From Solirubrobacterales bacterium (lineage in GTDB: Bacteria > Actinomycetota > Thermoleophilia > Solirubrobacterales > Solirubrobacteraceae): a DNA stretch of 64,000 bases. The first letter of the stretch is position 1, and the number at the start of each line of letters is the position of its first letter. The notes below the pieces were generated by a model. That model was given only the letters and a program-made list of their open reading frames with translations. It was not told the origin of the DNA and ran no database searches. A program made the translations under genes and the position numbers. Of this stretch, positions 9,332-48,682 are shown in pieces. The stretch spans positions 11,147 to 75,146 of the forward strand of contig JBBQLH010000002.1 of the NCBI GenBank assembly GCA_038327685.1, in the 5' to 3' direction.

Positions 9332-10861
9332 TCAAGGGGAGGGCAGACCTTCGAGGCGGCCCTGCGCGGCCGCCAGCACGGTCCGCGCCACGCCCTCCCA
9401 CGAGTAGCGCTCGCGGGTGATGGCCACCATCGCCTCGCGAGCGGCGTCCCGGAGCTCCGCGGGCGCCTCCAGCCAGCCGGTCAGCGCCGCCGCCAGCTGC
9501 GGCACGGCCTGCGGGCCGAGATCGAACCCGAGCAGCGGCCGCGCCGCCTCGGGCACGGCGCCGCCGAGCGTCTCGGCGACCTCGCCGAGGCCCGAATGGC
9601 GCGCGACGACCGGCAGGGCCCCGGAGGCCGCCGCCTCGGCCGCGACCATGCCGAACGCCTCGGGGAAGGTGCTGGGCACGACCATCGCCTCGGCGGCGGG
9701 GAGCAGGTCGGCCAGCTCGTCGTGCTCGAGGCGCCCGACCCAGGTCACGCGCGCGGGCAGGGCGGCGGCGGCCTCGGCGTACTCGCCGGCCTCGGCCTCC
9801 CCGAGGCCGTCCAGGAACGCCTGCAGATGCTCGAGCGCCTCGCCGTGCTCGCCCTGCGTGGCGCGCGCCGCCGCGAGGTCGCCGCGCGCGAGGTCGGCCG
9901 CGAGCTGCTCGAGCCCCGCGCGGAAGCCTCCGAACCCCACCACGACGAGCCGCGCGTCGGGCACGCGGGCGAGCACGAGCGGCCAGGCGGCGAGCAGCAC
10001 CTCCATCCCCTTGGAGGCGATCAGCTTGCCCACGAAGACGACGAGGCGGTCGCGCTCGGGATCGAGGCCCGCCAGCGCGTCGGCGGCGGCCGCGGTGTCG
10101 CGGGCGAACGAGGATCCCTGCGTGCCCGCGCGCGCGGAGCGCACGCGCCCGACCAAGGTGCCGAGGCCCGCCCGCGCCGCGGCGGGCTCGCGCGGGCCGA
10201 ACTGCTCGATGTCGACGCCGGGCGGCCCGAGCCGGGTCCGGCGCTCGACCTCGGGATCGTCCATCGCCGCCCACAGGCTCTCGGCCGTATGGCGCGAGCC
10301 CACCAGCACGCCGCGAGCCGCCCACAGCCCCTCGCGCGCGTACGGGAGGAAGCGCGGGTGCGGCTTGACCGTGTACTCGAGCGCCGAGCCGTGGATCTTC
10401 ACGGCGTAGGGCACGTCGAGGCCCGCCAGCCCGCGCGCCACGACGACCGGGCCCATCACGAGGTGGTTGGCGAGCGCCACGTCGGGCCGCGCGCGCTCGG
10501 CGACCTCGCGCACCGCGGCGACGTTGCGCTCCAGGTAGCGGTCGAGCTCGGCGTCGGAGAGCTCGGGGAACGGGCGCGCCTCGATCCCGTCGTAGCGATC
10601 CGGGACGTAGACGGGCAGCAGGCCGCCGAGGTCGGGGCGGTAGACCGTGGCGCGCGCGGGCTCCGAGCGCGTCTCGAGCGCCAGCTCTCCCCCGTCCCAG
10701 TCGCCGGCGGCGTCGACCCACTCCTGCTCGAACGGCTCGCGGTCCTGGCAGAGCAGGTGGACCTCGTGGCCCGCGCGCACGAGCGCCGCCGCCAGCCGCG
10801 CGTTGTAGACGTTCGAGCCCGTGCCGCCCAGCAGGTAGCCGTGGAAGATCAGGACGCGCAC
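9332..10861 (-). CDS. family 4 glycosyltransferase
   Basis: Starts VRVLIFHGYLLGGTGSNVY. GT-B C-terminal E-x7-E-like region PSTFPEAFGMVAAEAAASG. GTG start chosen at 10861. Confidence 0.8.
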   Translation of the reverse strand: MRVLIFHGYLLGGTGSNVYNARLAAALVRAGHEVHLLCQDREPFEQEWVDAAGDWDGGELALETRSEPARATVYRPDLGGLLPVYVPDRYDGIEARPFPELSDAELDRYLERNVAAVREVAERARPDVALANHLVMGPVVVARGLAGLDVPYAVKIHGSALEYTVKPHPRFLPYAREGLWAARGVLVGSRHTAESLWAAMDDPEVERRTRLGPPGVDIEQFGPREPAAARAGLGTLVGRVRSARAGTQGSSFARDTAAAADALAGLDPERDRLVVFVGKLIASKGMEVLLAAWPLVLARVPDARLVVVGFGGFRAGLEQLAADLARGDLAAARATQGEHGEALEHLQAFLDGLGEAEAGEYAEAAAALPARVTWVGRLEHDELADLLPAAEAMVVPSTFPEAFGMVAAEAAASGALPVVARHSGLGEVAETLGGAVPEAARPLLGFDLGPQAVPQLAAALTGWLEAPAELRDAAREAMVAITRERYSWEGVARTVLAAAQGRLEGLPSP

Positions 10862-29014: not shown

Positions 29015-29881
29015 ATGAGCGTGGCCCAAGCGGTCCGGGTGGCCCCCATCACCGACGGCGACGTGCGCCGGTCGGCGGAGTTCCTGCATGCGCAGCTGAA
29101 CACGCGCGTATCCGTCGATGACTGGTCGCGCGCGGTCGACGTGCCGTGGGCGGTCGAGAAGCCGAACGCCGGATTCATGCTGCTCGACGGCGACGAGGTG
29201 GTCGGCGTTCAACTCGCGTTCTACTCGGAGCGCATCCTGAACGGCAGCCGCGAGCGCTTCTGCAACCTCGGCGCCTGGTGCGTGTTGCCGCGCTATCGCT
29301 TCCACGGGCTGCGGCTGCTGCGGGCGGTGCTGCGCCAGGACGGCTACCACTTCACGGACCTGTCGCCGAGCGGGAACGTCGTCGGCGTCAACGAGAAGTT
29401 GAGCTTTCGCTTTCTCGACACGACGACCGCGCTCGTCCCCAACCTCCCTTGGCCGACCTTGCCCGGCCGCGGTCGCATCATCTCCGACCCCGAGCTGATC
29501 GAGCGCACGCTCACCGGTGCCGAACTCGATCTCTATAGGGACCACGCGGCCACGAGTGCTCGCCACGTGGTGCTGGCCCGTGGCGACGAGTGGTGCTACG
29601 TCATCTTCCGCCGCGACAGGCGCAAGGGGCTGCCGCTGTTCGCGAGCGTCCTCTATGTGAGCAACCCGGCCCTCTTCCGGGCGATGGCACCTCGCTTCGC
29701 GCGCCACCTGCTGATCCACCACCACGCCCTGGCCACGCTGGCAGAGGAGCGAATCGTCGCCTACCGGCCGCGGCCTTCGTACCGGCTCCGGTCACCGCGG
29801 CGAAAGATGTTCCGCAGCCCCAGCCTTGCGCCCGCGCAGATCGACGATCTCTACAGCGAGCTGGTCTGCGTCTCGTGGTGA
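29015..29881 (+). CDS. two-domain GNAT-fold acyltransferase-like protein
   Basis: N-terminal half has a GNAT-like core (GVQLAFYSER...WCVLPRYRFHGLRLL). The C-terminal half is unassigned. Lies immediately upstream of the ligase. Confidence 0.5.
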   Translation: MSVAQAVRVAPITDGDVRRSAEFLHAQLNTRVSVDDWSRAVDVPWAVEKPNAGFMLLDGDEVVGVQLAFYSERILNGSRERFCNLGAWCVLPRYRFHGLRLLRAVLRQDGYHFTDLSPSGNVVGVNEKLSFRFLDTTTALVPNLPWPTLPGRGRIISDPELIERTLTGAELDLYRDHAATSARHVVLARGDEWCYVIFRRDRRKGLPLFASVLYVSNPALFRAMAPRFARHLLIHHHALATLAEERIVAYRPRPSYRLRSPRRKMFRSPSLAPAQIDDLYSELVCVSW

Positions 29882-29899
29882 GCCCCGAAGGATCAACTC

Positions 29900-29905
29900 A
29901 GGAGG
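29900..29905 (+). promoter_or_regulatory. Shine-Dalgarno AGGAGG for the acyl-CoA ligase gene
   Basis: AGGAGG lies 5 nt upstream of the ATG at 29911. Confidence 0.7.
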
Positions 29906-29910
29906 TGGAC

Positions 29911-31482
29911 ATGGCAATGCGAACGCAGCTGCACCAGATCGTCGCCCAGATGGCGGCGAAGCGGCCCGACGCGCCGTCGCTGACGATCAAGGACACGACC
30001 CTGAGCTACAGCGAGCTCTGGGACGAGGCGCGCGCGTTCGCCGCCGGGTTGGCCCGCATCGGGCTCGGTCGCAGCGAGCGCGTTGCCATCTACCTCGACA
30101 AGCAGATCGAGACGGTGGCGTCCGTGTTCGGTACCTCGGCGGCCGGCGGCGCATTCGTCCCGGTCAACCCGCTGCTGCGCCCCCAGCAGGTCGGCTACAT
30201 CCTCGACGACTGCAGCGTCCGAGTGCTCGTGACGTCGGCGGAGCGGCTCGAGACGCTCGGCGACGAGCTCGAGCGGTGCGCATCGATCGAGCACGTGATC
30301 GTGGTGGCCGGAGGGCGCAAGCCCTCCGGGGAGCGGGTGTACGCCGTCCACTCGTGGGACGACTTCCTGGACACGGCCGACGCGCCCGAGCCCAACCTGA
30401 TCGACCTCGACATGGCGGCCATCTTCTACACGTCGGGCAGCACGGGGAAGCCCAAGGGCGTCGTCCTCTCCCACCGCAACCTGATCGTCGGCGGCGAGAG
30501 CGTCAGCCACTATCTGGGCAACCACGAGGACGATTGCATTCTCGCGGCCCTGCCGCTCAGCTTCGACGCCGGGTTCAGCCAGCTGACGACCGGGTTCACG
30601 GTCGGGGCCCACGTCGTGCTGGTCAACTACCTGCTGCCGCGTGAGGTGGTGGGGCTCTGCGCCGAGCACCGGGTCACCGGTCTCACGTGCGTGCCGCCGC
30701 TGTGGCTCCAGCTTGCCGACCAGACCTGGCCGGCGGAGGCAATGAGGAGCGTGCGCTACTTCGCCAACACGGGCGGTCGGATGCCGAAGTCGACGCTCGA
30801 CCGGCTGCGCGCGATCTTCCCGCGCGCGAGGCCCTTCCTCATGTACGGGCTCACCGAGGCGTTTCGCTCGACCTACCTCGACCCCGCCGAGGTGGACCGC
30901 CGGCCCGACTCGATCGGCAAGGCGATCCCGAACGCCGAGATCCTCGTGGTGCGCGAGGACGGCTCCCTCTGCGATCCGGACGAGCAGGGCGAGCTGGTCC
31001 ACCGCGGAGCGCTCGTCGCGATGGGCTACTGGAACGATCCGGAGCGGACCGCCGAGCGGTTCAGGCCGGCGCCGAGCCGTGACGGCGCGATCTGCACCAC
31101 CGAGACGGCGGTCTTCTCGGGCGACCTCGTCCGCCGTGACGAGGAAGGGTTCCTGTACTTCGTCGGGCGCAAGGACGAGATGATCAAGACCTCGGGCTAC
31201 CGCGTGAGCCCGACCGAGATCGAGGAGGTCGCATACGGCACCGGACTCGTCGGCGACGCGGTCGCGCTCGGCGCGGACGACGAGCGTCTCGGACAGCACA
31301 TCGTGCTGGCCGTCAGCCCCGCCAACGGCCATGTCGACCCCGATGAGCTGCTGGCGGTCCTGCGCCGCCAGCTTCCGCGGTACATGGTGCCCAAGCACGT
31401 GGTGGTGCGGCCCTCCCTCCCACGTTCGCCGAACAACAAGTTCGACCGCAACCTCCTTCGGCAGGAGCTGGCGGAGCGATGA
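29911..31482 (+). CDS. AMP-forming acyl-CoA/acyl-ACP ligase (adenylate-forming superfamily), resembling exosortase-A-associated ligases
   Basis: AMP-binding motif YTSGSTGKPKGV, GYWNDP, SGDLVRRDEEGFLYFVGRKDEMIKTSGYRVSPTEIE. The N-terminal VAIYLDKQIETV...VPVNPLLRPQQV...VRVLVTSAERL pattern matches my memory of the PEP-CTERM-associated ligase family. Confidence 0.85.
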   Translation: MAMRTQLHQIVAQMAAKRPDAPSLTIKDTTLSYSELWDEARAFAAGLARIGLGRSERVAIYLDKQIETVASVFGTSAAGGAFVPVNPLLRPQQVGYILDDCSVRVLVTSAERLETLGDELERCASIEHVIVVAGGRKPSGERVYAVHSWDDFLDTADAPEPNLIDLDMAAIFYTSGSTGKPKGVVLSHRNLIVGGESVSHYLGNHEDDCILAALPLSFDAGFSQLTTGFTVGAHVVLVNYLLPREVVGLCAEHRVTGLTCVPPLWLQLADQTWPAEAMRSVRYFANTGGRMPKSTLDRLRAIFPRARPFLMYGLTEAFRSTYLDPAEVDRRPDSIGKAIPNAEILVVREDGSLCDPDEQGELVHRGALVAMGYWNDPERTAERFRPAPSRDGAICTTETAVFSGDLVRRDEEGFLYFVGRKDEMIKTSGYRVSPTEIEEVAYGTGLVGDAVALGADDERLGQHIVLAVSPANGHVDPDELLAVLRRQLPRYMVPKHVVVRPSLPRSPNNKFDRNLLRQELAER

Positions 31483-32702
31483 CCGACGGACTCGCGACCG
31501 GGGTGGGGCCGGGCGTCTGCCGCGAAGTCGGCGGGGTGCCACTCGACCTTCTCGCCGAGCGTGTCGGATCGACACCGTTCTTCGCCTACGACAGGCACCG
31601 ACTCACCGAACGGGTCGCGTCCCTGAGAGCCGCCCTGCCGGACGATGTCGAGCTCGGCTACGCGATCAAGGCGAACCCGATGCCGGCGGTGGTCCAGCAT
31701 CTGAGCGGACTCGTCGACTCGTTCGACGTCGCCTCGGGCGGAGAGCTCAGGGTGGCGCTCGACACTCCGATGCCGGCCGAGCGGGTCAGCTTCGCCGGCC
31801 CCGGAAAGACGCCCGCCGAGCTGAGCCAGGCGATCGCCGCGGGTGCGACGATCGAGCTCGAGTCCGAGACCGAGGCGGCCCGGGTCGTGGAGGCCGGCGA
31901 GCGGCTCGGGGTCCGGCCGCGGGTCGCCGTCCGCGTCAATCCCGACTTCCGGGTCAAGGGCTCGGGGATGCGGATGGGCGGCGGACCCCAGCAGTTCGGA
32001 GTCGACGCTGAGCGGGTGCCCGCCCTGCTCGCAACCCTCGCGCGGGCCGACCTCGAGCTGCTCGGATTCCACATCTTCGCCGGCTCGCAGAACCTCAATG
32101 CGGAGATCCTCTGCGAGGCGCAGCGGGCGACCGTCGCCCTCGCCTTGCGCCTCGCCGAGGACTGCCCGGCGCCCGTCCGATACCTGAACATCGGCGGCGG
32201 TTTCGGGATCCCCTACTCCGACCGCGACTCGCCGCTCGATCTCGACGCGATCGGCGAGAACCTCGCAGGCCTGATGGCGGATGCGATCCGCCCCAACCTC
32301 CCGGCCGCCCGTGTGGTCGTCGAGCTCGGTCGCTACATCGTCGGCGAGTGCGGGGTCTACGTGACCCGGATCGTCGATCGCAAGGAGTCGCGCGGCAAGC
32401 TGTTCCTGGTCGTCGACGGTGGACTCCACCACCAGCTCGCCGCCTCGGGCAACCTCGGCCAGGTGATCCGCCGCAACTATCCGGTCGCGATCGCAGGCCG
32501 CGCTGCCGACGTGGACACGGAGCAGGTCACCGTCGTCGGCTGCCTGTGCACGCCGCTGGACCTGCTCGCCGACGACGTCGCCCTCCCGCGGGCTGAGATC
32601 GGGGACCTCGTCGTCATCTTCCAGGCGGGCGCGTACGGGCTCACCGCCAGCCCGACGGGCTTCCTCAGCCATCCCGCTCCGGTTGAGGTGCTGGTCTCAT
32701 GA
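31479..32702 (+). CDS. PLP-dependent decarboxylase (Orn/DAP/Arg decarboxylase fold)
   Basis: ATGA coupling to the ligase. PLP-lysine motif YAIKANP, then GGGFGIPY and a C-terminal beta-barrel region. Confidence 0.85.
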   Translation: MTDGLATGVGPGVCREVGGVPLDLLAERVGSTPFFAYDRHRLTERVASLRAALPDDVELGYAIKANPMPAVVQHLSGLVDSFDVASGGELRVALDTPMPAERVSFAGPGKTPAELSQAIAAGATIELESETEAARVVEAGERLGVRPRVAVRVNPDFRVKGSGMRMGGGPQQFGVDAERVPALLATLARADLELLGFHIFAGSQNLNAEILCEAQRATVALALRLAEDCPAPVRYLNIGGGFGIPYSDRDSPLDLDAIGENLAGLMADAIRPNLPAARVVVELGRYIVGECGVYVTRIVDRKESRGKLFLVVDGGLHHQLAASGNLGQVIRRNYPVAIAGRAADVDTEQVTVVGCLCTPLDLLADDVALPRAEIGDLVVIFQAGAYGLTASPTGFLSHPAPVEVLVS

Positions 32703-33865: not shown

Positions 33866-33914
33866 CGCGCCGCGGCCGGACTCGGGACACGGCTATGTGG
33901 GCGCGACTACAGAC

Positions 33915-33921
33915 AAGGAGG
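33915..33921 (+). promoter_or_regulatory. Shine-Dalgarno AAGGAGG
   Basis: Lies 6 nt upstream of the ATG at 33928. Confidence 0.65.
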
Positions 33922-33927
33922 CGGCTG

Positions 33928-34929
33928 ATGGTGACGGCGCTGCCCCTCCTCGTGGCACTCGGATTCGTGGTCGCGGTCGCGCGGCCGGGGACCGATCCGG
34001 CTGTTGAGACGTCAGCCAAGGGGGCTCCCGCCCGCAACGGTCATCGCGCCGAGCTCCGGGCAGCCACGTATTCGCGCGACCGCGCGAGCCGGCCGAGCCC
34101 CGCTCGCAAGGGCTACCGGTTCCCGAACCGCAAGACGACCGGGGTACCGCACGGGTGGGCGCCGCGGCGGACGCGCGCGAGCGACCTCACCGTCACCCGG
34201 GCGGGGACCGTCGTGCGGGACACCCGGTTCACGAACGGGGCCAACATCATCGTCAAGGCCAGGGACGTCACGATCCGGCGCGTCGACATGCAGGGCGGGA
34301 TGGTCACGAACCAGTCGGGGTCGAACTGCGGCACCGGGCTGCTGGTGGAGGACTCGACCTTCGAGCCTGCCAAGGGACAGCCCTACGTCGGCAACGACAG
34401 TCCGGCCATCGGAGAGGGCGGCTACGACGCGAGGCGCGTGGAGATCTGGAAGCGGGGCGAGGGCTTCCGGGCGTCCGACTGCGGGCAGGTCAAAATCACG
34501 GACTCGTTCGCGTACATCGTGGGCGATACTCCCGATTGCGGCCGAGACCTGCACTCGGACGGGGTCCAGGGCTATTTCGCGAAGGGCATGACCCTTCGCA
34601 ACGCGACCCTCATCTTCGGCAACGATTGCGGAACGTCTCCCTACTTCATCGGCTACGGCCCTGGTTATCCGTCCGAGCCGCCGATCAACACCGGCACCTA
34701 CATCGTGGATCGTCTCCTCGTGGCGGGTGGCGGTTATGTGTTCCGCCAGGGCGTCCCCGCCTCCGTGACCGGGCTGCGCATCGTCGACAAGTCGTGGCTG
34801 TATGGACCGATCGACAACGCGTGCCCGGCCATCTCACGGTGGGAGGCCAAGATCGTCAAGGTCGACTCCCACTATCGAATCACGCGCGTGGTCCGCAACC
34901 AGCGTTGCAACACCAACACGAGGGACTAG
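33928..34929 (+). CDS. N-terminally anchored/secreted protein of unknown function, paralog of 38643-39932
   Basis: TM/signal MVTALPLLVALGFVVAVA. Long collinear identity blocks with the downstream paralog. The ORF-track start at 32683 is a shadow extension through the GT2 gene. Confidence 0.7.
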   Translation: MVTALPLLVALGFVVAVARPGTDPAVETSAKGAPARNGHRAELRAATYSRDRASRPSPARKGYRFPNRKTTGVPHGWAPRRTRASDLTVTRAGTVVRDTRFTNGANIIVKARDVTIRRVDMQGGMVTNQSGSNCGTGLLVEDSTFEPAKGQPYVGNDSPAIGEGGYDARRVEIWKRGEGFRASDCGQVKITDSFAYIVGDTPDCGRDLHSDGVQGYFAKGMTLRNATLIFGNDCGTSPYFIGYGPGYPSEPPINTGTYIVDRLLVAGGGYVFRQGVPASVTGLRIVDKSWLYGPIDNACPAISRWEAKIVKVDSHYRITRVVRNQRCNTNTRD

Positions 34930-34955: not shown

Positions 34956-35231
34956 TCAGCGGGACTTCGCGGCGACGAAAGCCGCCAGGCTCCCGATCGT
35001 CTCGAAGACCTCGGCGGTGACGTCCTCGTCCTCCACCGTGATGCCGAAGCGACGCTCGAGCTCGACGACCAGCTCGAGGACGGCCAGGGAGTCGAGCTCC
35101 GGAATCGAGGTGAGGGACGTCTGCGCGTCCAGGGCGCCGGCGCGATCCTCGATGGCCAACGTCTTGATCACGACGGCCCTGACGTCGGCGACACCGATCG
35201 TCTGGTTCGTGCCCATGGAAGAGGTGCTCAT
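34956..35231 (-). CDS. acyl carrier protein
   Basis: 91 aa. Phosphopantetheine site ELDSLAVLELV and an acidic helix pattern. Confidence 0.85.
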   Translation of the reverse strand: MSTSSMGTNQTIGVADVRAVVIKTLAIEDRAGALDAQTSLTSIPELDSLAVLELVVELERRFGITVEDEDVTAEVFETIGSLAAFVAAKSR

Positions 35232-35232
35232 G

Positions 35233-36671
35233 TCAAATCAACGCACCGGGACCGGCCGGTCTTGCGCGCCGGCTGCGCCGCAGACTCAGCAGGCCGGAGG
35301 CTGCGAGCATCAACCCGAGCGCGGCCGCGCGGACGACGCCGCCGGCGTCGCGCGGCAGGGGGAGCGCGGCCGGATCGACGATGGAGATGATGGTCACAGC
35401 GGCAAACGCGGCTGAGAGTACGGACATGCTCACCCGCTCGTCGCGATGAGACGAGGTGGCTCCGCACCAGATCGCGACCAGCGCGGCCCCGATCAACGTA
35501 TCCGACGGCGCGAACGCGACATCGACCAGGGATCCGGCCACGAACAGCGCGATCGGCCAATACCAGCGCCTTCGGCCCTTGGCCCGGGGGGCATGGCCGC
35601 GGGCGAGCCCCAACCCGATCGAGGCGACGAGGATCACCAGCACGAAGCGCAGGCGATCGAGCCTCTCGAGGAGGCGGGCGCTCTCGCGGCCGCCTCCCGC
35701 CGTGAGGAAGTAGGCATCGGTCTGGCGAGCGAGTACGGTGCGCCAGCCGGATTGCCATTCGCTGGGCATGATCCACGCCATCAGGGTCATGCCGGTCCCG
35801 AGGTTCAGAGAGGCCGCCGGGGGCACGCGCACCACCTCGCCCGCGCCTTCGAAGCTCATGCCGGGCCCGAAGCGGCCGGCGCTCGTCCATTTCGCTCCAC
35901 GGATCGTGCCGGTGTTCCCGTTGCCCGACGCGTCGGTCGCGGTCCGTCCCCCGCCGGCGTCGAATCCGTACGCCGCCGCGAGCCCCGCCGAGGCGGGGCC
36001 GGCGCGGCCTGAGATCGGTGTCGACATCGCGGCCCGCACCTCCGAGGGGCGAGCGCTCGGCGGTAGACACGCAGTTCGTCGATCACGCCCTGGAAGTACT
36101 CCCCGTAAGGGCGGTTGCCGCCGATCCACAGGGGATCCGTCGTCCTCAGGACGGTCCCGGACACCGATCGGCTCGACACCTCGAGGCCGTCGACGTACAG
36201 GCGGTACTTCGCCCCGTCGTACGTCGCCGCGAGATGCGTCCAGCGGCCAACCGGCTCCGCGCGCAGACCATCCACATGCTGCGTGTTGCCGCCGAACGTC
36301 CCTCCCCCGGCCGGGACGAGCGGCGAGCCGATCCTCGGATCGAGGATGCCGGCCAGGAGCAGCGCGCCAAGCACGATTGCGGAGACGGCGGCTCCACGGC
36401 CGCCCGCCCACCGCCTCCGCTCCGGTCGGGCCTCGCGCGCGCGGGACCGGGAAGCGGCAAGCGCGAGGGCTATGAGCGGAAGGGCGGGAAGGTCCGCCGC
36501 GTCGACACCATGCTGCTCGGAGAGCGCCAGGACGGTCGGGCCGTGCCACGGCTCCAGCGTGAGGAAGCCGCACGCAGCCACCAGCAGGAAGGCGACGAGC
36601 GCAGGGCTCTCGCGGCCTGGCCCGGGGACGAGACGGCGGACTGGGCTAACCGATGTCCGCGTGGCTGGCAC
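35233..36671 (-). pseudogene. polytopic membrane protein with a LamG (Laminin_G_3) ectodomain in swapped half order; reading frame broken once near 36045
   Basis: Upstream frame (36671 to about 36045): 3 TM helices, then the LamG C-half (WTHLAATYDGAKYRLYVDG...IDELRVYRRALAP). Downstream frame (36045 to 35233): SEVRAAMSTPI linker, the LamG N-half (DASGNGNTGTIRGAKW...MTLMAWI), then 5 TM helices. May be an intact CDS if the break is an assembly error or recoding. Confidence 0.55.
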
Positions 36672-37372: not shown

Positions 37373-38359
37373 TCACGGCGTGTGAACCGGGCTCGGCGAT
37401 TTCGAGAGCTCCCTCGGATGCACCGACAAGGGGCTCCACGGCGAGTGCGGAGGGGGCGACAGGCCCAGAAGCGTCCTCAGCGCCGCCCCATGGGCCTCCC
37501 TGCGGCGTCTTCCGAGCTCCCCGCGCCGCGAGCAGACGAACCGAAGCGAGTGCCGCAGGAGAGCGGTTCCGAAGTAGAGCGCGCGATGCGTCCGCGAGAA
37601 GTGCTTGCGCGCGTAGAGGATGCGACTGTGCGCGCTGAGGCTCTCGACGCTCGGCTGGACGCCGACCTTGGCGCCGTAGTGAAGGATCGTCATCCACGGG
37701 AAGTGGCGGATCTCCCAGCCCGCGCTGCTGATCCGCCAGCAGAAGTCGGTCTCCTCGGAGTACATGAAGAAGCGCTCGTCCATGAAGCCCGCACTCTCGA
37801 TCGCCTCACGCCTGGCGAGCATGAACGACCCGCTCGTCCAATCGCACTCGAGCTCGCGGTCATAGGCCCCCGGCTCGAGTTCGCGCTCGCCCAGCCACCG
37901 CGGGCGTCCGGGCAAGCGCTCGGCCGAGAGAGCGTCGCCGAGCGCCCGAAGCGCGTTCGGGAAGCGACGGATCGTCATGTCGAGGCCACCCTCACCGTCC
38001 ACTTGGCGCGCCCCGACCAGCCCGACGCCGGGGCGCTCATCCATGCGCGAGACGAGGTCGCTCAGGCTTCCTTGCAGGATCTCCGTATCCGGATTCAGGA
38101 AGAGCACGTAGCGGGCGTCGCACGTCATGAGACCGCGGTTGTTCGCGTAGGCGAAGCCGCGGTTCTCGCATCCGATCAGCCGAACGTCGCGGAAGTCCGC
38201 GACGATGTCCGCGGTGGCATCTCGCGAGCCGGCGTCGACCACGACCACGTCCGCATGCAGCGATCCCATGTGCTCGAAGACGCTGCGCAGACAGGCCGCG
38301 ACGTAAGGCGCGCTGTTGTATGCGACGACGATGACGGCGAGGTCGTCCAAACCGGTCAA
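37373..38359 (-). CDS. family 2 glycosyltransferase
   Basis: VIVVAYNS, VVVDAGSRD, FLNPDT, MYSEETDFCWR. Confidence 0.85.
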   Translation of the reverse strand: MTGLDDLAVIVVAYNSAPYVAACLRSVFEHMGSLHADVVVVDAGSRDATADIVADFRDVRLIGCENRGFAYANNRGLMTCDARYVLFLNPDTEILQGSLSDLVSRMDERPGVGLVGARQVDGEGGLDMTIRRFPNALRALGDALSAERLPGRPRWLGERELEPGAYDRELECDWTSGSFMLARREAIESAGFMDERFFMYSEETDFCWRISSAGWEIRHFPWMTILHYGAKVGVQPSVESLSAHSRILYARKHFSRTHRALYFGTALLRHSLRFVCSRRGELGRRRREAHGAALRTLLGLSPPPHSPWSPLSVHPRELSKSPSPVHTP

Positions 38360-38642
38360 TCAACGCGAGGTCCGCGCACGTTCTTTCGTCGCACGCGCGA
38401 CTGAAGGCCGGGCCACCGCGGCGCACGTCCCGGCGTCGGCCCTTATAGTTGCCGCGGGCTCTCAGGGAGTCATGCCCGCGCGGGCGACCTCCGAGGGGTC
38501 GCACGTCCTGGCGAAATTCATCGCCGTGATCGTTGGAGCCGAAAACCGGCCCGTCGGTCACGCGCCGGTGAGTGGGCGACTGCGGCGCCTGGATCCGGCA
38601 TGAACCGCAACGACGCGGCACAAGCTGAGGAGAACGCCCCGA

Positions 38643-39932
38643 ATGCCGAAGTGGCTGGTGCTATCGACGGTGGTGCTCCTCAATCTCGCCGCGACGGCGA
38701 GCGGAGCCGCCGCTCGCGATCGCGATCACGACCGGCTGCCAGATCGCTGGGAACGGAAGCATCACCTGTCGGCCCACATTCCCAGCGCCAAGCGCGATCC
38801 CGACCGCGACGGCCTCACCAACCTCCGCGAGCTGCGGCTGCGCACGCATCCGCGGCGCGCCGACACCGATCGCGACCGTCTCCGCGACGGCGCCGAGGTC
38901 CGCCGCTACCGCACCAACCCGCGCAAGCGCGACACCGACCGCGACGGGCTGCTCGATGGCGCCGAGGTCCGCCGCTACCACACGAGCCCGCGCAAGCGGG
39001 ACTCCGACGGCGACGGGTTCAGCGACGGACGCGAGGTCCGCGCGGGGACGAACCCGCGCGATCGCCGGAGTCACCCGTCCGGGCTTGCGACTTCCCTGCC
39101 TGCCGGCGGATCCCCGGATGTGACTCCCCCGCCCCCCGGCGGATTCCCGAACGCGGCGAGCACAGGCGTGCCGGCCGGGTGGACGCCCACGCAGACAAGG
39201 TCGACCGAGCTGACCGTGACGACGCCGGGCGCGGTCGTACAGGACATCCGCTTCACGAACGGGGCGAGCATCGAGGTTCGGGCCGACAACGTGACGATCC
39301 GTCGCGTTGACATGCAGGGCGGCGCCATCACCAACCAGTACGGCAGCGCCCCGGAGGCCTGCGGCCACAACCTGCTCGTCGAGGACACCACTTTCGAGCA
39401 GATCCCCGGCCAGTTCGAGTCCTCCGACAGTCCGGTCATCGGCGAGGGCAGCTATACGGCCCGCCGCATCGAGGTCGCCGCTCGCGGCGAAGGACCACGA
39501 CTGTCGGACTGCGGCCCGGTCACCCTCGAGGACTCCTTCATCAGCATCCGCGGCGCGGACACGGACACGCCCGCGTGCGTTGCCGTCCACTCCGACGGCG
39601 TGCAGGCCGTCGCAGGCGTGGGCGCCACCGCCCGCAACAACACGATCATCATGGAGACCTACTGCGGCACGTCGGCCTGGTTCGTCGTGAACCCGGGCGT
39701 CAACGGGGGCCGCTATGACATCGACCGGTTGCTCGTGGCGGGCGGGGGCTACGTGTTCCGCCAACAGGTGCCGGGCTCGATCACCGGGCTCCGGATCGTC
39801 GACGACTCGTGGGTGTACGGGCCGCTGGATGAGATGGACTGCTCCGTCCTGGACCCGTGGGACGCCAAGCTCGTGACGATCGACTCCAACTACCAGGTCA
39901 CCAGCGTGGTACGCGACCAGCCCTGCACCTGA
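38643..39932 (+). CDS. secreted protein: thrombospondin-type-3-like Ca-binding repeats plus the domain paralogous to 33928-34929
   Basis: Signal peptide. Repeats of the TNPRKRDTDRDGLLDGAEVRRY type. C-terminal 290 aa collinear with the upstream paralog. Confidence 0.75.
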   Translation: MPKWLVLSTVVLLNLAATASGAAARDRDHDRLPDRWERKHHLSAHIPSAKRDPDRDGLTNLRELRLRTHPRRADTDRDRLRDGAEVRRYRTNPRKRDTDRDGLLDGAEVRRYHTSPRKRDSDGDGFSDGREVRAGTNPRDRRSHPSGLATSLPAGGSPDVTPPPPGGFPNAASTGVPAGWTPTQTRSTELTVTTPGAVVQDIRFTNGASIEVRADNVTIRRVDMQGGAITNQYGSAPEACGHNLLVEDTTFEQIPGQFESSDSPVIGEGSYTARRIEVAARGEGPRLSDCGPVTLEDSFISIRGADTDTPACVAVHSDGVQAVAGVGATARNNTIIMETYCGTSAWFVVNPGVNGGRYDIDRLLVAGGGYVFRQQVPGSITGLRIVDDSWVYGPLDEMDCSVLDPWDAKLVTIDSNYQVTSVVRDQPCT

Positions 39933-42756: not shown

Positions 42757-43650
42757 CTAGATGTAGTTCCTGACCACGTTGTTCACGCTAACGCGCCGCT
42801 CGGCCCGAAGGGCAGGGCGACGATCGTGGGTCGCGTGGTCGAGCAGGAGTGGTCGCTCGCGGAGGCGGCCGAGGCCGCCGGAGTGAGCGAGCGCGGCTGC
42901 TCGAAGTGGGTCAGGTGGTACCGGGCCGAGTGCGAGCCCGGCTTGCACGATCGTTCCTCGGCGCCGAAGTCGATCGCGCATCGCACCCCCGACGAGCTCG
43001 TCGAAGCGATCGCCGCGCTGCGCAGGTTGCGGATGACCGGCGCGGAGATCGCGTTCTGTCTGACGATGGCGCTCTCGACCGTCTCCGCGGTCCTGACGCG
43101 GATCGGGCTGGGCAAGCTCTCGCGACTCGAGCCGCGTAGAGCCGCCGAACCGCTACGAGCGCCGCCGCGCCGGCGAGCTGATCCACGTCGACGTCAAGAA
43201 GCTCGGCCGCATCCGCGTCACCGGTCACCGCGTCACCGGTCACCGCGCCAGCCAGAAGCGCACCCGAGTCAACGCCAAGCGCACCGGAGTCGCGGGCTGG
43301 GAGTCGTGCACGTCTGCGTCGACGACGCCACCCGCCTGGCCTACGTCGAAGTCCTCATCGACGAGAAGGCCACCACCGCGGTCGGCTCCCTGCGCCGCGC
43401 GAAAGCGTTCTACGCCTCCCACGGCATCACGTCGAGCGCGTGATGACCGACAACGGATCGGCCTACCGCTCCACCATCCACGCCTTCGCCTGCCGCGCAC
43501 TGGGCCTGCGCCACCTCCGCACCCGCCCCTACCGCCCGCTGGCTCTGGATCTACAACCATCGCCCATCGCCGCCCCCACGGCTCACCAGCCACAAGACGC
43601 CGATCGCTCGCCTCAACGAGCTGAACAACCTCCCTGGGTCCCGCGCCTAG
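42757..43650 (+). mobile_element. decayed IS481-family insertion sequence (transposase pseudogene)
   Basis: Transposase pieces lie in three frames: HANAPLGPKGR...SRLEP; EPPNRYERRRAGELIHVDVKKLGRI; VHVCVDDATRLAYVEV...; MTDNGSAYRS...RTRPYRP; WLWIYNH...TPIARLNELNN. The QTNGKAERF region is missing. CTAG occurs at both edges. Confidence 0.8.
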
Positions 43651-44888
43651 CCGGCTGCCCGCTCCGCCGTCGCAGGCTGAGGCGCGGGCACGACGGTCGC
43701 GCCTGACCTGTCCTCGGCCGGCACGACCGGCCGTCCGAGCCTGGGCCAGACGCGCAAGATCGGCAGCGTCCGAAGCGCGCTCACGCTACGGTGCCGCAGG
43801 AACGGCGCCTCGAACAGCAGATGGAAGCCGTAACAGAGGGCCAGGATCACGGGGAGGCCGAAGGCGAGCGTCAGCCCGAATGTGGCGAGCGGGGACAGGT
43901 CCAGGGGTTCGAACGCGTACTTGTCGAGAACGCCGATGATCGGGTCGTGGATCAGGTAGATGCTGTAGGAGAACAGGCCCAGCCACAGGGCGGGGCCTGA
44001 GGCGAGCACGCGGCGCGCGGGGACCATCCCGCCCGCGTGGATCAGCGCCAGCGCGCTCGCGACGCCCACACCGAAGAGGAGATCCATCCAGAAAAAGCGA
44101 CCGACCACCCACTCCGAGCCCTGGATCACCGCCAGCAGGAGGAACGAACCGAACGTCACCAGCGTCACGGCCGCGAGTGGACGACGCAGCCTCTGCGCGC
44201 GGTCGCCGCCCCCGAGCCAGACCGCGAGCGCGCCCAAGGCGAAGAGGGCCAGGAACTGCGGCGTCAACCTGTCGAGCTTGTGAAGCGGCCCGCCGAGACC
44301 AGCGACCGCGTGGACCAGGAGCACCGAGCTCGTGGTGATCAGGACCGCGATGCCGAAGCTGGTCCGGCGCCCGAGCAGGAGAATGAGCGGGAACACGAAG
44401 TAGATCTGCCACTCGATGGCGATGGACCAGAACGCACCGTTGGGGGTCTCGCTCCCCACGACGTCCTGCAGCAGGAGACCGTGGACGGCAAGGGTCCTGC
44501 CGATCGCTCCCGGGCCGAGATCCGGCTGCAGGAGGACTGCGGTGACGAGGATGGACAGGATCAGAGCGGCCCAGTAGGCGGGGAGAATTCGCCACGCTCG
44601 CCGCCGCAGGAATCGCCGTAGCCCGCCGGACAGCTTGCCCCGGTTGCGCATCGGGCCCAGGGCGAGCGAGAAGCCCGACACGACGATGAAGATGGCGACG
44701 GCCATGTGGCCATAGAGCAGCCACCCGAGCCACCATGGCCCGGTGTTGCGCGGGAAGCTCGGCCAGGTCGTCAGCCAGATGTGGTGAAGGACGACGAACA
44801 TCGCCGCCGCTCCGCGAACGCCGTCCAGCCAGTTGACCCGGGCGGCGCCTCGAGCGGGGCCCGCTAGCGCTGCGCTTCGCGTGGCCAC
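43647..44888 (-). CDS. acyltransferase family 3 membrane protein (polysaccharide O-acyltransferase)
   Basis: NWLDGVRGAAAMFVVLHH, FIVVSGFSL, RRAWRILPAYW. About ten TM helices. Confidence 0.85.
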   Translation of the reverse strand: MATRSAALAGPARGAARVNWLDGVRGAAAMFVVLHHIWLTTWPSFPRNTGPWWLGWLLYGHMAVAIFIVVSGFSLALGPMRNRGKLSGGLRRFLRRRAWRILPAYWAALILSILVTAVLLQPDLGPGAIGRTLAVHGLLLQDVVGSETPNGAFWSIAIEWQIYFVFPLILLLGRRTSFGIAVLITTSSVLLVHAVAGLGGPLHKLDRLTPQFLALFALGALAVWLGGGDRAQRLRRPLAAVTLVTFGSFLLLAVIQGSEWVVGRFFWMDLLFGVGVASALALIHAGGMVPARRVLASGPALWLGLFSYSIYLIHDPIIGVLDKYAFEPLDLSPLATFGLTLAFGLPVILALCYGFHLLFEAPFLRHRSVSALRTLPILRVWPRLGRPVVPAEDRSGATVVPAPQPATAERAAG

Positions 44889-45652
44889 TGCGGGGCGTCG
44901 GGGTCGGGATCCGGGAAGGACTCAAAGCTCCGACGCAGAGTCACCGGGGGTACGAACGCTCCTGTGTCGGCCCGATTCGCTTCATCGATGCGACCGTGTG
45001 CCCACTCCACCCGAAGGGCGCTCAGGGCGTCCAGAATCGACATGGCGACGAAGAGCAGGATCGTGCCCAGAACGAGCACCGCGACCAGCGAGCGGAGCTT
45101 GCCTGACGGCTTCAGCTTCGCGTCATGAGCAGGGACAACCGCTTCCGTCCTGATCCGATAGCGCGTGTCGACCCCACGTACCCGCTGCATCTGGTCGAGC
45201 TCGTTGGTCATCGCCTCGCCGACCAGGTGCGCCGTATCGATGGCTGCGGCCGCACTCGTGCCGGTGCCGGTGATCTGGACGATCGGCGAGCTGAAGCCGA
45301 ACTCGGCGCTCGGTGCGGCCGTGAAGGTCGGGTCAGCCCCCTTCTTGGCGAGGCTGCGGCGATTTTCCTCGCTGCTCACCCTGCTCGTCAACACCTGCAC
45401 CAGTACGGATTGATCCGAGAAACGCGTGTACGGGTTGTCGTCCCCCTTGATGCGGCCGAGCGCCGGGTTGCGCGCGATCTCCGCATCGGTCGGGGGCGGC
45501 GGCGGATTGACCAGGATGTACTTGGCGGACGCCTCGTAGGTCGGCGCCGAGACGGCGACCAGGTAGAACACGCCGGCAAGGACGCAGGCGAAGATCGGAA
45601 ACGTGACGAGCTTGTACTTCCACAACTTTCTTGCGATCAGCAACAGACTCAT
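44864..45652 (-). CDS. Wzz-like polysaccharide co-polymerase / chain-length determinant, no kinase domain
   Basis: N-terminal and C-terminal TM helices flank a periplasmic-type domain. ATGA coupling to wzy. Confidence 0.65.
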   Translation of the reverse strand: MSLLLIARKLWKYKLVTFPIFACVLAGVFYLVAVSAPTYEASAKYILVNPPPPPTDAEIARNPALGRIKGDDNPYTRFSDQSVLVQVLTSRVSSEENRRSLAKKGADPTFTAAPSAEFGFSSPIVQITGTGTSAAAAIDTAHLVGEAMTNELDQMQRVRGVDTRYRIRTEAVVPAHDAKLKPSGKLRSLVAVLVLGTILLFVAMSILDALSALRVEWAHGRIDEANRADTGAFVPPVTLRRSFESFPDPDPDAPQWPREAQR

Positions 45653-47055
45653 GATTGGGCCCTCCCTGGCCGGAACCTGGGTTGTGGGAATTCGATGCCC
45701 CGAGGTGCGAGAGCGGCGGTCGGGAACGTCGTCCGCCCGCGCTCTCGCTCGGCTGCGGCCAGGCGCCAGCAGGCACCGGCCAACCCGATCACCAACGCAT
45801 AGACGTTGGCGAACATCGGAAAAGACAGGGAGTCGAAGGTCAGCGAGCACACGGGCGCGACAAATCCGGCGCCGGCCAGCGCGGCACACAGGATGCGGAG
45901 CTCCGGATTCGTGCTCCGCCTCCGCGCGACGAGCGCGACGAGCGCCGGAACGAGTAGGAAGACGATGAGCGCCAGGACTCCGACCAGGCCAAGCTCCACC
46001 ACGGCGTCCAAGTACTGATTGTCGAAGATGTTCAGTTCATCGGTAGGAAGCCAGGTACCGGGGCCGTGGCCGAGCCATGGGGCGAGCTGCCAGACCTGCT
46101 CGGCCAGCGGATAGTCGTGGGTGCGATACAGGATCGATGAATCGCTGGAGGCCCCGGAGAAGAAACCCGTGAGGGTGCCGAGCAACCCGTGCGCCGACAC
46201 GAATATCCCGGCCAGCGCAATCGGCAGGGCACCCAGAGCAGCCAAGCGCGGCAGCGGCGGCAGGAGCACGACGAGCACGGCGAGCGCCACGATGACCGAA
46301 AGGATCGCCGAGCGCGACACCGAGGTCGCGACGCCGAGGGTGATCAGCGTCAGCGGAGCCCATCGCCTGAACGGGCTCTTGGCCCGGTCATACAGCCCAA
46401 GACAGACCGCCAGGGGAATCAGCATTCCCGCTACGACACCGAGCTCGATGGCACTGATGGCGGTGCCCGCAGAGCGGTTCAAGGATCCGCGGGCCACGAT
46501 GGCGGGATTGTCGTGGTTCACGGTGAACCCGGGCAGCTCGCGCAGGTATTGGGCGAGGTCGAAGCCCATCCAGTACTGCAGCGCGGCGACGAGTCCGCAG
46601 AACGCGCCCCCCCAGCACAACACCCGCACCACCCGCATCGCGTCGTGCAGGGAGCGCAGCCACTCGGAGGCGACCAGCACGACCCCCGTGATCACCGCAA
46701 AGCGGATCAAGACGCGATCGGCGTTGGCGAGCGCCATCCCGGTCAGCCGACCGTGGTCCATGAAGATGTAGGACGCAAGCACGGAGACCCAGATCACGCA
46801 GAGCACGCCCTGGATCGGGCGCGAGTGGCGAGTTGGATCATGGGAACCGAGCAGGACGCTCGTGGCGAATACGCCGAACACGAACACGCCAACCAGCGAG
46901 GCGGGATATCCGGCCGCGCCGACCGGCTTGAACACGGTGTCCGACGGGATCACCATCAACGCAAGCGCGAACAGCTGGAGCATCACGACGCCATTCGGGC
47001 GCGATGACCCCTCGTCGGCGGTTGTGCGGGGATGGGAGAGTGCGGCGGCGTTCAC
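45649..47055 (-). CDS. O-antigen polymerase/ligase family membrane protein (Wzy-like)
   Basis: Polytopic protein of about 12 TM helices with a large loop carrying the SRSAILSVIVAL motif region. Codon usage is visibly less GC-rich. Confidence 0.75.
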   Translation of the reverse strand: MNAAALSHPRTTADEGSSRPNGVVMLQLFALALMVIPSDTVFKPVGAAGYPASLVGVFVFGVFATSVLLGSHDPTRHSRPIQGVLCVIWVSVLASYIFMDHGRLTGMALANADRVLIRFAVITGVVLVASEWLRSLHDAMRVVRVLCWGGAFCGLVAALQYWMGFDLAQYLRELPGFTVNHDNPAIVARGSLNRSAGTAISAIELGVVAGMLIPLAVCLGLYDRAKSPFRRWAPLTLITLGVATSVSRSAILSVIVALAVLVVLLPPLPRLAALGALPIALAGIFVSAHGLLGTLTGFFSGASSDSSILYRTHDYPLAEQVWQLAPWLGHGPGTWLPTDELNIFDNQYLDAVVELGLVGVLALIVFLLVPALVALVARRRSTNPELRILCAALAGAGFVAPVCSLTFDSLSFPMFANVYALVIGLAGACWRLAAAERERGRTTFPTAALAPRGIEFPQPRFRPGRAQS

Positions 47056-47155
47056 TGAGCTCGCCTAACGAACGGCTCGCCGGCATCGAATCTTGTGCGC
47101 GAGGCAAAGCCATGTCTCTTGGAAGCGCAGGGCCCGCGCATCCGTTGAGAGTCGT

Positions 47156-48682
47156 ATGGATCGAACCGAGCACGAAGCTGCCCCGCGCATGGAGCGCCTC
47201 GTCGGTATAGGAATCACGTGGAAGCTGGCGGGCCAGGTCGCGGTGCAGCTCAGTCGCCTGCTCACGGTCGCGGTCTTGGCACGCCTCTTGACCCCGCACG
47301 ACTACGGCGCAGCGGCGATCGCGATCGTGCTCGCGTCGTTCGCGCCGCAGGTGGCCGACATGGGCATCGGGTCCGCTCTCGTACAGGCCGAGACGGCGCC
47401 GCGAGCGGTCCGCTCGACGACGTTCTGGGCATCGGTCGCCTCCGGCGTCGGCCTCTTTCTGATCACGGCGGCCGCGGCTGAGCCGGTGGCGCGGTTCGTG
47501 GGCGAACCGGAGGTCGCCGGGATGGTCGTCGCCGGCGGGCTCACCTTCGCGATCTATTCCCTGGGGTCGGCGAGCCAGGCCGTGTACCTGCGCGAGATGA
47601 GGTTCCGCAGCAGCGAGCTGCGCAACTGGCTCGCACTCCTCGCCGGAGCCGTGGTCGCGATCATCGCAGCGGCCGGCGGAGCGGGGCCCTGGGCTCTGGC
47701 CCTGCAGCAGATCGCATACATGGGCACCCTGGTCGCCGCACTTTGGTTCCGTGCGGGATGGCGCCCGACGCTGGAGTTCTCGCGCCCGGCGTTTCGCGAG
47801 CTGCGCTCGTTCGCGATCCGGATCGCGGGCGGTCGCTGGGCCCGGCTGATCGAGCTGCTCGTCCTCACGCTGCTGATCGGAAAGCTCGCGAGCGTCGCCG
47901 AGCTCGGCGCATGGGCCTTCGGGATGAGCATGGTCGTCCTCCCGCTGAGCCTGATCGCGATCCCGATCGCGGAGGTGCTCTTCTCGGCCTTCTCCCGTCT
48001 CCGCAACGAGCCGGAGCGCATGGCCGCCCTCTGGCTCGACAGCATCGGCTACCTGGCGGCGGTCCTGCTGCCGCTCCTGCTCGGCCTGATGGTCGTCGCC
48101 CCCGATCTGATCCCGACCGTGTTCGGATCGCGCTGGGAGGTCTCGGTCGGCGTCGTGCAGATCCTCAGCGTCTACGTCCTCATCCGCGGCCTTCAGTCGT
48201 GGGGCTCCGTGTACATGGACGCCGTCGGCCGGCCCGAGGTGACGTTCTGGACCCAGCTCGCGTCCCTCTGCCTGACGCCGCTGGCGGTCGTGGTCGGCGT
48301 CCACTGGGGGATCGAGGGGGTCGCGGCATGCTTCGTCGTCTGCCAGATGATCGCGGTCGAGATCCCGATGTTCGTCATCGTCCTCTCCCAGATGCGCGTC
48401 TCACCGCGGACCTTGGCCGGGCGCGTGTCCGGCATCGCCGTCGCCTCGCTCTTGATGACGCTCGCCTGCGTGCTCGGACGCTCGGCGCTCGAGTCGGCCG
48501 GCGTCGGCATGGCCGGGCGCGCCGCCCTGACGATCGCCCTCGGACTCGCCGTCTACGCGCCCGCGCTGTGGTGGCTTGCCCCTCACGTCAGCCGGCGGGT
48601 GTTCGGGATCGGCAGGAGTCGCCTGACGAAGCTGATCGACGCCCGCCGGCGGCGGGCCGTCCTGCAGCCGGAGCACGGATGA
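47156..48682 (+). CDS. Wzx-type polysaccharide flippase (MOP superfamily)
   Basis: Polytopic (about 14 hydrophobic segments by eye). N-terminal WKLAGQVAVQLSRLLTVAVLARLLTPHDYG is typical of Polysacc_synt proteins. Alternative start at 47189. Confidence 0.8.
   Translation: MDRTEHEAAPRMERLVGIGITWKLAGQVAVQLSRLLTVAVLARLLTPHDYGAAAIAIVLASFAPQVADMGIGSALVQAETAPRAVRSTTFWASVASGVGLFLITAAAAEPVARFVGEPEVAGMVVAGGLTFAIYSLGSASQAVYLREMRFRSSELRNWLALLAGAVVAIIAAAGGAGPWALALQQIAYMGTLVAALWFRAGWRPTLEFSRPAFRELRSFAIRIAGGRWARLIELLVLTLLIGKLASVAELGAWAFGMSMVVLPLSLIAIPIAEVLFSAFSRLRNEPERMAALWLDSIGYLAAVLLPLLLGLMVVAPDLIPTVFGSRWEVSVGVVQILSVYVLIRGLQSWGSVYMDAVGRPEVTFWTQLASLCLTPLAVVVGVHWGIEGVAACFVVCQMIAVEIPMFVIVLSQMRVSPRTLAGRVSGIAVASLLMTLACVLGRSALESAGVGMAGRAALTIALGLAVYAPALWWLAPHVSRRVFGIGRSRLTKLIDARRRRAVLQPEHG

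Follow-up and report, generated by a model that had tools for sequence, protein, structure and literature searches.

Results

Gene structure and frameshift

We have analysed a 64,000-nucleotide stretch of contig JBBQLH010000002.1 from a Solirubrobacterales bacterium, referred to here as the window, in which the gene at 35233–36671 on the minus strand encodes a membrane protein with eight transmembrane (TM) helices and a single LamG (Laminin_G_3) domain whose two halves occur in reversed order. The coding sequence is split over two overlapping open reading frames (ORFs). Frame A (36671..35856) encodes an Arg-rich N-terminus and TM1–TM3, followed by GRWTHLAATYDG...RVYRRALAP; the segment after these three hydrophobic helices reads GRWTHLAATYDGAKYRLYVDG...GEYFQGVIDELRVYRRALAP, beyond which the frame is lost. 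Frame B (36573..35233) supplies SEVRAAMSTPI...AAYGFDAGGG (GLAAAYGFDAGGG), then ...MTLMAWI...AYFLTAGGG (RQTDAYFLTAGGG), five TM helices and the stop codon. As a first-pass annotation of this DNA had anticipated, the frame can be repaired: addition of one base beside a CCCC run at ~36042–36052 yields a single 479-aa protein in which three TM helices, the LamG C-terminal half (C-half), a linker, the LamG N-terminal half (N-half) and five TM helices follow one another. The features of the gene are as follows.

35233..36671, minus strand: whole gene, 479 aa after restoring one base; 8-TM protein with a circularly permuted LamG in loop 3
36327..36671, minus strand: N-terminal part, with Arg-rich tail (predicted cytoplasmic) and TM1–TM3
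36483..36554, minus strand: conserved loop 1 motif EPWHGPxVLxLSxxHGxDxxDLPA (predicted extracytoplasmic), common to LamG-less relatives; the His of HGxD is invariant
36013..36326, minus strand: LamG C-half (SPLVPAGGGTF...RVYRRAL..SEVRAAMSTPI), Laminin_G_3 profile positions 66–150
36042..36052, minus strand: site of a 1-nt deletion (frameshift) relative to intact L086 and L003, adjoining the CCCC run
35986..36012, minus strand: short linker SGRAGPASA, from the native LamG C-terminus to the native N-terminus
35689..35985, minus strand: LamG N-half (GLAAAYGFDAGGG...MTLMAWI...RQTDAYFLTAGGG), Pfam match to Laminin_G_3 positions 3–50
35233..35688, minus strand: C-terminal part, with TM4–TM8, the invariant Asp at the outer end of TM5, DxGGxxRxxALG before TM8 and the stop codon

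The GTG start at 36671 agrees with the gene start of homologue P0001. When aligned at the DNA level with the intact genes L086 (encoding P0001; 86% nucleotide identity) and L003 (encoding P0006), the window gene differs by one 1-nt gap, located at RAL^xP, the remaining gaps all being multiples of 3. The ratio of nonsynonymous to synonymous substitution rates (dN/dS) relative to L086 is 0.33–0.41 in every segment on both sides of the frameshift, and the GC content of third codon positions (GC3) is 0.82–0.87 across all gene segments. Because these values hold throughout the gene, the frameshift is explained either by an assembly or homopolymer error or by a very recent lesion that has made the gene a pseudogene. 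The public gene call, P0038, comprises only the 264-aa downstream fragment starting from the Met of MSTPI. The frameshift (36007–36052, minus strand) sits exactly at the native LamG C-terminus, and the downstream frame starts at this Met, which is invariant in the family. Should the frameshift be genuine, the cell could produce a pair of membrane-anchored fragments with half a LamG on each, a natural test case of a split domain. A further full-length family member, at 9947–11320 of L014 in a metagenome-assembled genome (MAG) labelled uncultured Actinomycetes, is present in three pieces in different frames, which suggests either error-prone assembly of a GC-rich gene or repeated inactivation. 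Neither a second copy of the gene nor a canonical LamG of the same subfamily was detected within the window.

Conservation of the architecture

A protein search detected at least 110 intact full-length homologues of 430–499 aa, sharing 50–81% identity, mostly over >85% coverage. The order TM, C-half, linker, N-half, TM is identical in these homologues, as the first-pass annotation had read it from the window gene, and at least 80% of them retain both junction motifs, PAGGGTF and YFLxAGGG, together with conserved TM features. Named members are annotated as "LamG domain-containing protein" in Thermoleophilaceae MAGs. In data restricted to one genome per species, full-length members were confined to Thermoleophilia-type MAGs, assigned to Thermoleophilaceae, Solirubrobacterales, Gaiellaceae and unclassified Actinomycetota (L005–L015). 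The gene belongs to an unnamed conserved membrane protein family of the class Thermoleophilia, so far represented only by metagenome-assembled genomes.

These homologues bear directly on whether the arrangement is an artefact, in which the TM-like segments would be mistranslated or out-of-frame sequence and the true gene would encode an ordinary LamG protein or result from a local rearrangement specific to this genome. Although the window gene requires frame repair and its public call is a 264-aa fragment, over 110 intact homologues carry the same TM segments in the same order, the TM scaffold is also found on its own as a diverse family, the TM segments have a GC3 of 0.82–0.87 and a dN/dS of ~0.35–0.4, and a single non-triplet gap separates the window gene from its intact relatives. 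Ordinary complete LamG domains flanked by mistranslated TM segments were not found in the intact homologues, the outer TM regions being genuine and conserved, and we give an artefact, refuted by these proteins, virtually no weight.

A single, circularly permuted LamG domain

The repaired protein matches Pfam Laminin_G_3 (PF13385) with E=2e-27 and 96.7 bits, the gathering score being 27.6 bits. Residues 129–212 correspond to profile positions 66–150 and the later segment to positions 3–50; all parts of the domain are therefore present while the collinear N-to-C order is absent. An artificial, de-permuted construct matches positions 3–150 in one stretch with 103 bits. The same reversal is observed against solved LamG-like chains (5hon, 4qvs), where the later part of the family profile aligns with residues 2–80 and the earlier part with residues 100–202. 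When the query was reordered, placing the N-half ending in YFLTAGGG before the C-half beginning SPLVPAGGGTF, it matched an ordinary LamG domain of L017, from a Solirubrobacterales MAG, in a gapless alignment of 204 aa (59% identity; E=1e-89), and LamG domains of L040 and L050 at 56–59% identity. Across the cut point, YFLTAGGG joined to SPLVPAGGGTF equals the canonical YFLSASNG-DPLHPAGGGTF with zero gaps, nothing being missing or repeated. Because the reordered halves align gaplessly with canonical domains, the protein sequence indicates that exactly one LamG domain is present, opened in one loop, and that it is a circular permutant. This bears out the earlier suggestion that the two halves constitute one permuted domain, to which a confident structural model across both halves, described below, also contributes.

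The first-pass annotation had placed both cuts at the same AGGG motif. The gapless alignment corrects this, assigning the cuts to two neighbouring sites a few residues apart in one Gly-rich loop: YFLTAGGG corresponds to canonical YFLSASNG and PLVPAGGGTF to canonical PLHPAGGGTF. The family variants YFLTASGG and YFLTAGNG are consistent with the AGGG motifs being distinct sites. The possibility that the AGGG pair is a target-site duplication or a Campbell-type integration scar was considered and is not supported, given the gapless alignment and the different loop positions. An apparent match of L079 reaching into the TM region is spurious, L079 encoding a giant secreted protein whose LamG domains are canonical.

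The TM bundles form a pre-existing scaffold

A profile built from the TM parts only, used in a word-indexed search, recovered LamG-less relatives of 240–288 aa (P0139–P0154, P0171). With LamG-less proteins as the query, an exhaustive profile search of 1.84 billion representatives, clustered at 50% identity, matched 278 representatives at an E of 0.001 or better. The best 150 of the 278 include 40 full-length LamG-less proteins of 220–310 aa and 10 proteins with an insert of ~215–260 aa at the same site, the match being split between profile positions ~94 and ~108, with the exception of P0208, in which it resumes only at 124. The insert consists of one C-half followed by one N-half in 10 of 10 insert-bearing representatives, so that the homologue search returned the domain order of the window protein throughout. 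In the LamG-less relatives the 8-TM chain is contiguous, with a TM3–TM4 loop of ~10 residues. Features conserved across the scaffold are EPxHGPxxLSLxxxHGxDxGD in loop 1, an Asp that is invariant at the outer end of TM5, DxGGxARSxALG before TM8, all three located on the extracytoplasmic side, and PSGT in loop 5.

Since the scaffold also occurs alone, these comparisons indicate that both TM bundles belong to one pre-existing 8-TM family and that the LamG is an insertion into its extracytoplasmic TM3–TM4 loop, replacing the earlier proposal of a tandem LamG protein truncated on both sides and carrying TM ends. The identity of the scaffold was sought in several databases. For the TM-only construct and profile the best Pfam match was TgpA_N at a non-significant E=3, and a PDB profile search returned zero matches at E up to 10. 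NCBIfam gave the full-length protein a sub-threshold TafC match on the LamG part only. Foldseek searches with models of P0001 and of the LamG-less P0139 returned no significant neighbour for the scaffold, only chance-level G protein-coupled receptors, rhodopsins, AcrB and EmbB. Assignments as GT-C, PAP2, rhomboid or exosortase-like proteins were rejected, as the candidate Cys and Ser residues are not conserved across the wider family and profile support is absent.

Neighbour-joining trees of the TM part place all LamG-bearing proteins in one region, interspersed with a few LamG-less lineages, and ~35 LamG-less proteins branch outside it; 0 of 200 bootstrap replicates recovered the LamG-bearing proteins as strictly monophyletic. 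P0139 reads ...LLLAGGVKLSGVVRL followed directly by GTLDD, where its LamG-bearing neighbour P0072 reads ...LLLVGGVELFGAGRL, then VPAGGGTF...YFLMAGGGGGVRL, then EALDD; similarly, P0173 retains both variable flanks of its LamG-bearing neighbour P0068. On these junctions, P0173 and the P0139 clade look like cases of precise secondary loss of LamG. Compared with P0072 and P0068, the LamG-less P0139–P0154, P0172 and P0173 resemble exact excisions of the LamG cassette in which flanking linker residues are retained.

Predicted structure and topology

An AlphaFold2 model was made as a monomer on P0001, which is 79% identical to the window protein, from a 111-sequence alignment. The model has a mean predicted local distance difference test score (pLDDT) of 80 and a predicted template modelling score (pTM) of 0.71, and contains eight TM helices arranged 3+5. 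Residues 120–330 form 15 beta-strands extending over both LamG halves with pLDDT mostly >90. Unpaired half-domains would be unlikely to reach such values, and the model supports, short of proof, closure of the two halves into a single intramolecular beta-sandwich. The LamG-less P0139 was also modelled with eight helices, at a pLDDT of 70. Across the family, Lys and Arg are abundant in the N-terminus, loops 2, 4 and 6 and the C-terminus, and near zero in loops 1, 5 and 7. From this distribution the positive-inside rule predicts that both termini are cytoplasmic and the LamG extracytoplasmic.

Origin of the permuted insert

At most other loci, members of this LamG subfamily are parts of large secreted proteins and have the canonical order, with 50–62% identity per half. 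The first-pass annotation attributed the permutation to duplication, a model reviewed in PMC3320104, and tandem arrays lend this part of the proposal some support: query residues ~110–320, encompassing the C-half, linker and N-half, align unbroken across the domain boundary in tandem LamG arrays (L016, L019–L024, L035, L043, L051) at 36–45% identity, these arrays being relatives and not demonstrated ancestors. Linkers in Solirubrobacterales arrays are equally short, for example PIQTPKAGPVAAW in L024. Conversely, neither a full tandem nor a tandem truncated on one side was found as an intermediate at the insertion site among the insert-bearing representatives examined, leaving the route undemonstrated. 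Origin from tandem LamG arrays is thus plausible, on the strength of these alignments, though unproven. The situation also differs from the reviewed model in that the register-shifted unit is here placed inside another gene, lacking its own start and stop codons.

The simplest history would begin with a LamG-less 8-TM ancestor, proceed through one insertion and end with later precise losses. In one lineage, the very short extracytoplasmic TM3–TM4 loop received one permuted LamG, consisting of C-half, ~10-residue linker and N-half. Its probable source lies among the LamG-containing large secreted proteins that soil bacteria make, the same clade included, and most likely it was one repeat period in shifted register from a tandem array. 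The chain would then enter and leave the beta-sandwich through one opened loop (YFLxAGGG to PLxPAGGGTF), holding the domain by two tethers on the outer face of the membrane, and some lineages would subsequently have lost the LamG precisely. A bolder version appears doubtful to us, namely that a single step captured one shifted repeat period into a ~10-residue hairpin, that the permutation is functionally required, that the LamG acts as a two-tethered lid over the His/Asp face in a novel membrane-embedded glycan-binding or glycan-processing machine, and that the cassette was lost cleanly more than once.

Two other arrangements have to be weighed against a self-contained permuted LamG inserted into the scaffold. 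The protein could have arisen by fission and fusion, two half-LamG membrane proteins, or a LamG interrupted by insertion of a membrane protein, having fused without any tandem duplication. The frameshifted window gene has just such a two-piece layout, its downstream ORF starting from a conserved Met, so a split version is conceivable; however, the LamG-less relatives possess a contiguous 8-TM chain with a ~10-residue TM3–TM4 loop, free-standing half-LamG membrane proteins are not seen among the intact full-length matches, and tandem arrays aligning contiguously through the linker do exist, making this origin very unlikely. Alternatively, the domain could be completed between chains, the C-half of one pairing with the N-half of its neighbour in a domain-swapped oligomer. 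Both halves are constrained, the pairing partner is not readable from sequence, and the model is of a monomer only. Against such swapping, this model is confident over both halves (pLDDT mostly >90), the linker is similar in length to those of tandem arrays, the native termini of LamG are adjacent, so that intrachain closure is easy, and the exact cut without overlap or loss is the expectation for a self-contained domain. We therefore consider a swapped oligomer unlikely.

Several observations weigh against the interpretation of a permuted LamG that closes on itself within a pre-existing scaffold. Intramolecular closure depends on one AlphaFold2 model, known from its scores and strand count and not from coordinates, and Foldseek against the PDB gave weak matches, with E of 0.06 or worse, the top ones being 1ajk, 1ajo, concanavalin A (ConA) and the PAPP-A LamG. 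For the scaffold, sequence comparison with Pfam, NCBIfam and the PDB gave no match, and no structural neighbour reached significance. The most conserved segment of the scaffold, EPWHGP...HGxDxxDLP (36483–36554; P0001 residues 41–61), has a pLDDT <50. Bootstrap support for the placement of the LamG-less lineages is weak (0.24–0.45), the closest canonical LamG relatives are single domains and not direct tandems, the tandem ancestor being one that we infer, and conservation of the gene neighbourhood is confined to the closest subclade. Overall, we retain the interpretation of a permuted LamG inserted into the 8-TM scaffold with high confidence, which applies mainly to the architecture and the insertion history.

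The conserved loop 1 segment, poorly ordered in the P0001 model, is modelled as a small beta-hairpin in LamG-less P0139, and may need a partner or ligand for ordering.

Relation to known systems

The closest known relatives are canonical Laminin_G_3 (PF13385) domains of the same subfamily in secreted multidomain proteins of soil bacteria, as in L017 and L040 from Solirubrobacterales MAGs and L050 from a beta-proteobacterial MAG. Shared motifs include DASGNGNxGT, GWRTxxxRQxDAYFL, PAGGGTF, PLWIGGNxPYGEYFxGxIDExRVY and RAL..E....M.TP. The canonical domains differ in having the N-half before the C-half, in soluble secreted hosts without a membrane scaffold.

Swaposin sits as an insert within an unrelated host enzyme. 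In plant aspartic proteases, this plant-specific insert is the classic example of permutation by duplication, explained by duplication and truncation of a small domain (PMC3320104). It differs from the present family in having a helical saposin fold in place of a beta-sandwich, and a soluble eukaryotic host enzyme without a membrane scaffold. ConA and favin are the standard example of circular permutation, ConA being permuted post-translationally (PMC3320104). Together with the circularly permuted jelly-roll 1,3-1,4-beta-glucanases 1ajk and 1ajo, they indicate that permutation is tolerated in the concanavalin A-like lectin/glucanase fold class to which LamG belongs. However, 1ajk and 1ajo are engineered, whereas the permutation in the window family is natural and genetic and occurs inside a polytopic membrane protein.

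In the searchable literature nothing relevant was found on a permuted LamG or on an exosortase-associated trio of ligase, decarboxylase and acyl carrier protein (ACP). Both permutation by duplication and permuted folds of the ConA-like class have precedents, and no principle is overturned. What distinguishes this case is the natural genetic permutation of a Laminin_G_3 domain in a short loop of a polytopic protein for which both the uninserted host and apparent clean-loss derivatives are extant. The family thus offers a clean natural case of a circularly permuted domain arising and becoming fixed with most stages still extant: the canonical single LamG (59% identity), tandem arrays aligning through the linker, the permuted insert, the insert-free host and the apparent precise losses. 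It also brings to light two unannotated families, the 8-TM scaffold with its outer-face His/Asp motif and the LamG-bearing branch, the latter sometimes located in exopolysaccharide clusters; both occur in Thermoleophilia, an abundant and poorly studied soil group. For protein engineering, the insert indicates that a tight transmembrane hairpin can accept a graft of a jelly-roll lectin domain when the latter is opened at this loop.

Genomic neighbourhood and possible function

The genes surrounding the target include the following.

34956..35231, minus strand: ACP gene, its ATG 1 nt past the target stop codon
36687..37697, minus strand: polysaccharide deacetylase ORF directly upstream of the target, a conserved neighbour in the closest subclade only
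37373..38359, minus strand: GT2 (family 2) glycosyltransferase, first gene of the GT2-deacetylase-target unit
29539–32699, plus strand: AMP-forming ligase and pyridoxal phosphate (PLP)-dependent decarboxylase, above the NCBIfam cutoffs of TIGR03098 (754 bits) and TIGR03099 (582 bits), 'exosortase A system-associated'
43650–48679: Acyl_transf_3 O-acyltransferase, Wzy-type polymerase and Wzx-type flippase

The true start of the deacetylase is probably near 37385, as its homologues are 220–244 aa in length. On the plus strand, the ligase, the decarboxylase, a GT2 and an exported protein of unknown type converge on the target unit. Further downstream lie genes for UDP-glucose dehydrogenase (UGDH), a GT4 glycosyltransferase, the O-acyltransferase, Wzy and Wzx. 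Because a Wzy-type polymerase and a Wzx-type flippase are encoded downstream, the locus is, by gene content, a Wzx/Wzy-dependent exopolysaccharide cluster. No Wzz/Wzc-type chain-length regulator was detected among the ORFs scanned, nor was an exosortase, for which the search did not extend to the full 64 kb. The ligase and decarboxylase above cutoffs, the ACP, the deacetylase and the GT2 nearby resemble exosortase-A-associated exopolysaccharide loci, with the differences that the target protein is matched by none of the NCBIfam models, those for exosortases included, and that the family is tied to this locus type in one subclade only.

The GT2-deacetylase-target unit is shared by the window, L086, the P0002 contig, L002 and L003/L004. 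Coupling of the target to the ACP within a polysaccharide operon, as claimed in the first-pass annotation, is seen in the window and in L003/L004, whereas the ACP is not adjacent to the target in L002 or the P0002 contig. Distant members have unrelated neighbours, L001 for example lying between miaA and miaB near recA, and the ACP is absent from their neighbourhoods. Beyond the closest subclade, no recurring neighbour family was detected by all-against-all clustering of flanking ORFs or by tblastn with the window and L001 neighbours.

With respect to function, we tentatively suggest, with low confidence, that the LamG may be a glycan-binding module held by two tethers over the His/Asp outer face of the scaffold. 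In the subclade of the window, the LamG protein would work with the co-transcribed GT2 and deacetylase, binding or presenting polysaccharide at the outer leaflet. A weaker alternative is an ACP-dependent membrane transferase acting as DltB does with DltC, moving an acyl or aminoacyl group, which the TIGR03098 ligase would load onto the ACP, to polysaccharide held by the LamG. The spacing of 1 nt between the target stop codon and the ACP ATG, the adjacency of the ACP in L003/L004 also, the ligase and PLP-dependent decarboxylase scoring above cutoffs for the exosortase-A-associated pair, and the deacetylase directly upstream, which could expose an amine, are all compatible with such a role. However, Pfam, NCBIfam and PDB searches gave no homology to MBOAT or any other acyltransferase and Foldseek returned nothing significant, the ACP is not adjacent in L002 or the P0002 contig and is absent near distant members, and the conserved scaffold residues lie on the outer face with no cytoplasmic docking surface evident; a transferase role is in our view improbable.

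Two further proteins of the locus attracted attention. The exported protein of 342 aa converging on the target unit (33901–34926, plus strand) has no Pfam or NCBIfam match; both it and a protein with thrombospondin type 3 (TSP3) repeats (38604–39929, plus strand) match L003 4706–5494, and from these matches the two proteins appear to share an uncharacterised C-terminal domain.

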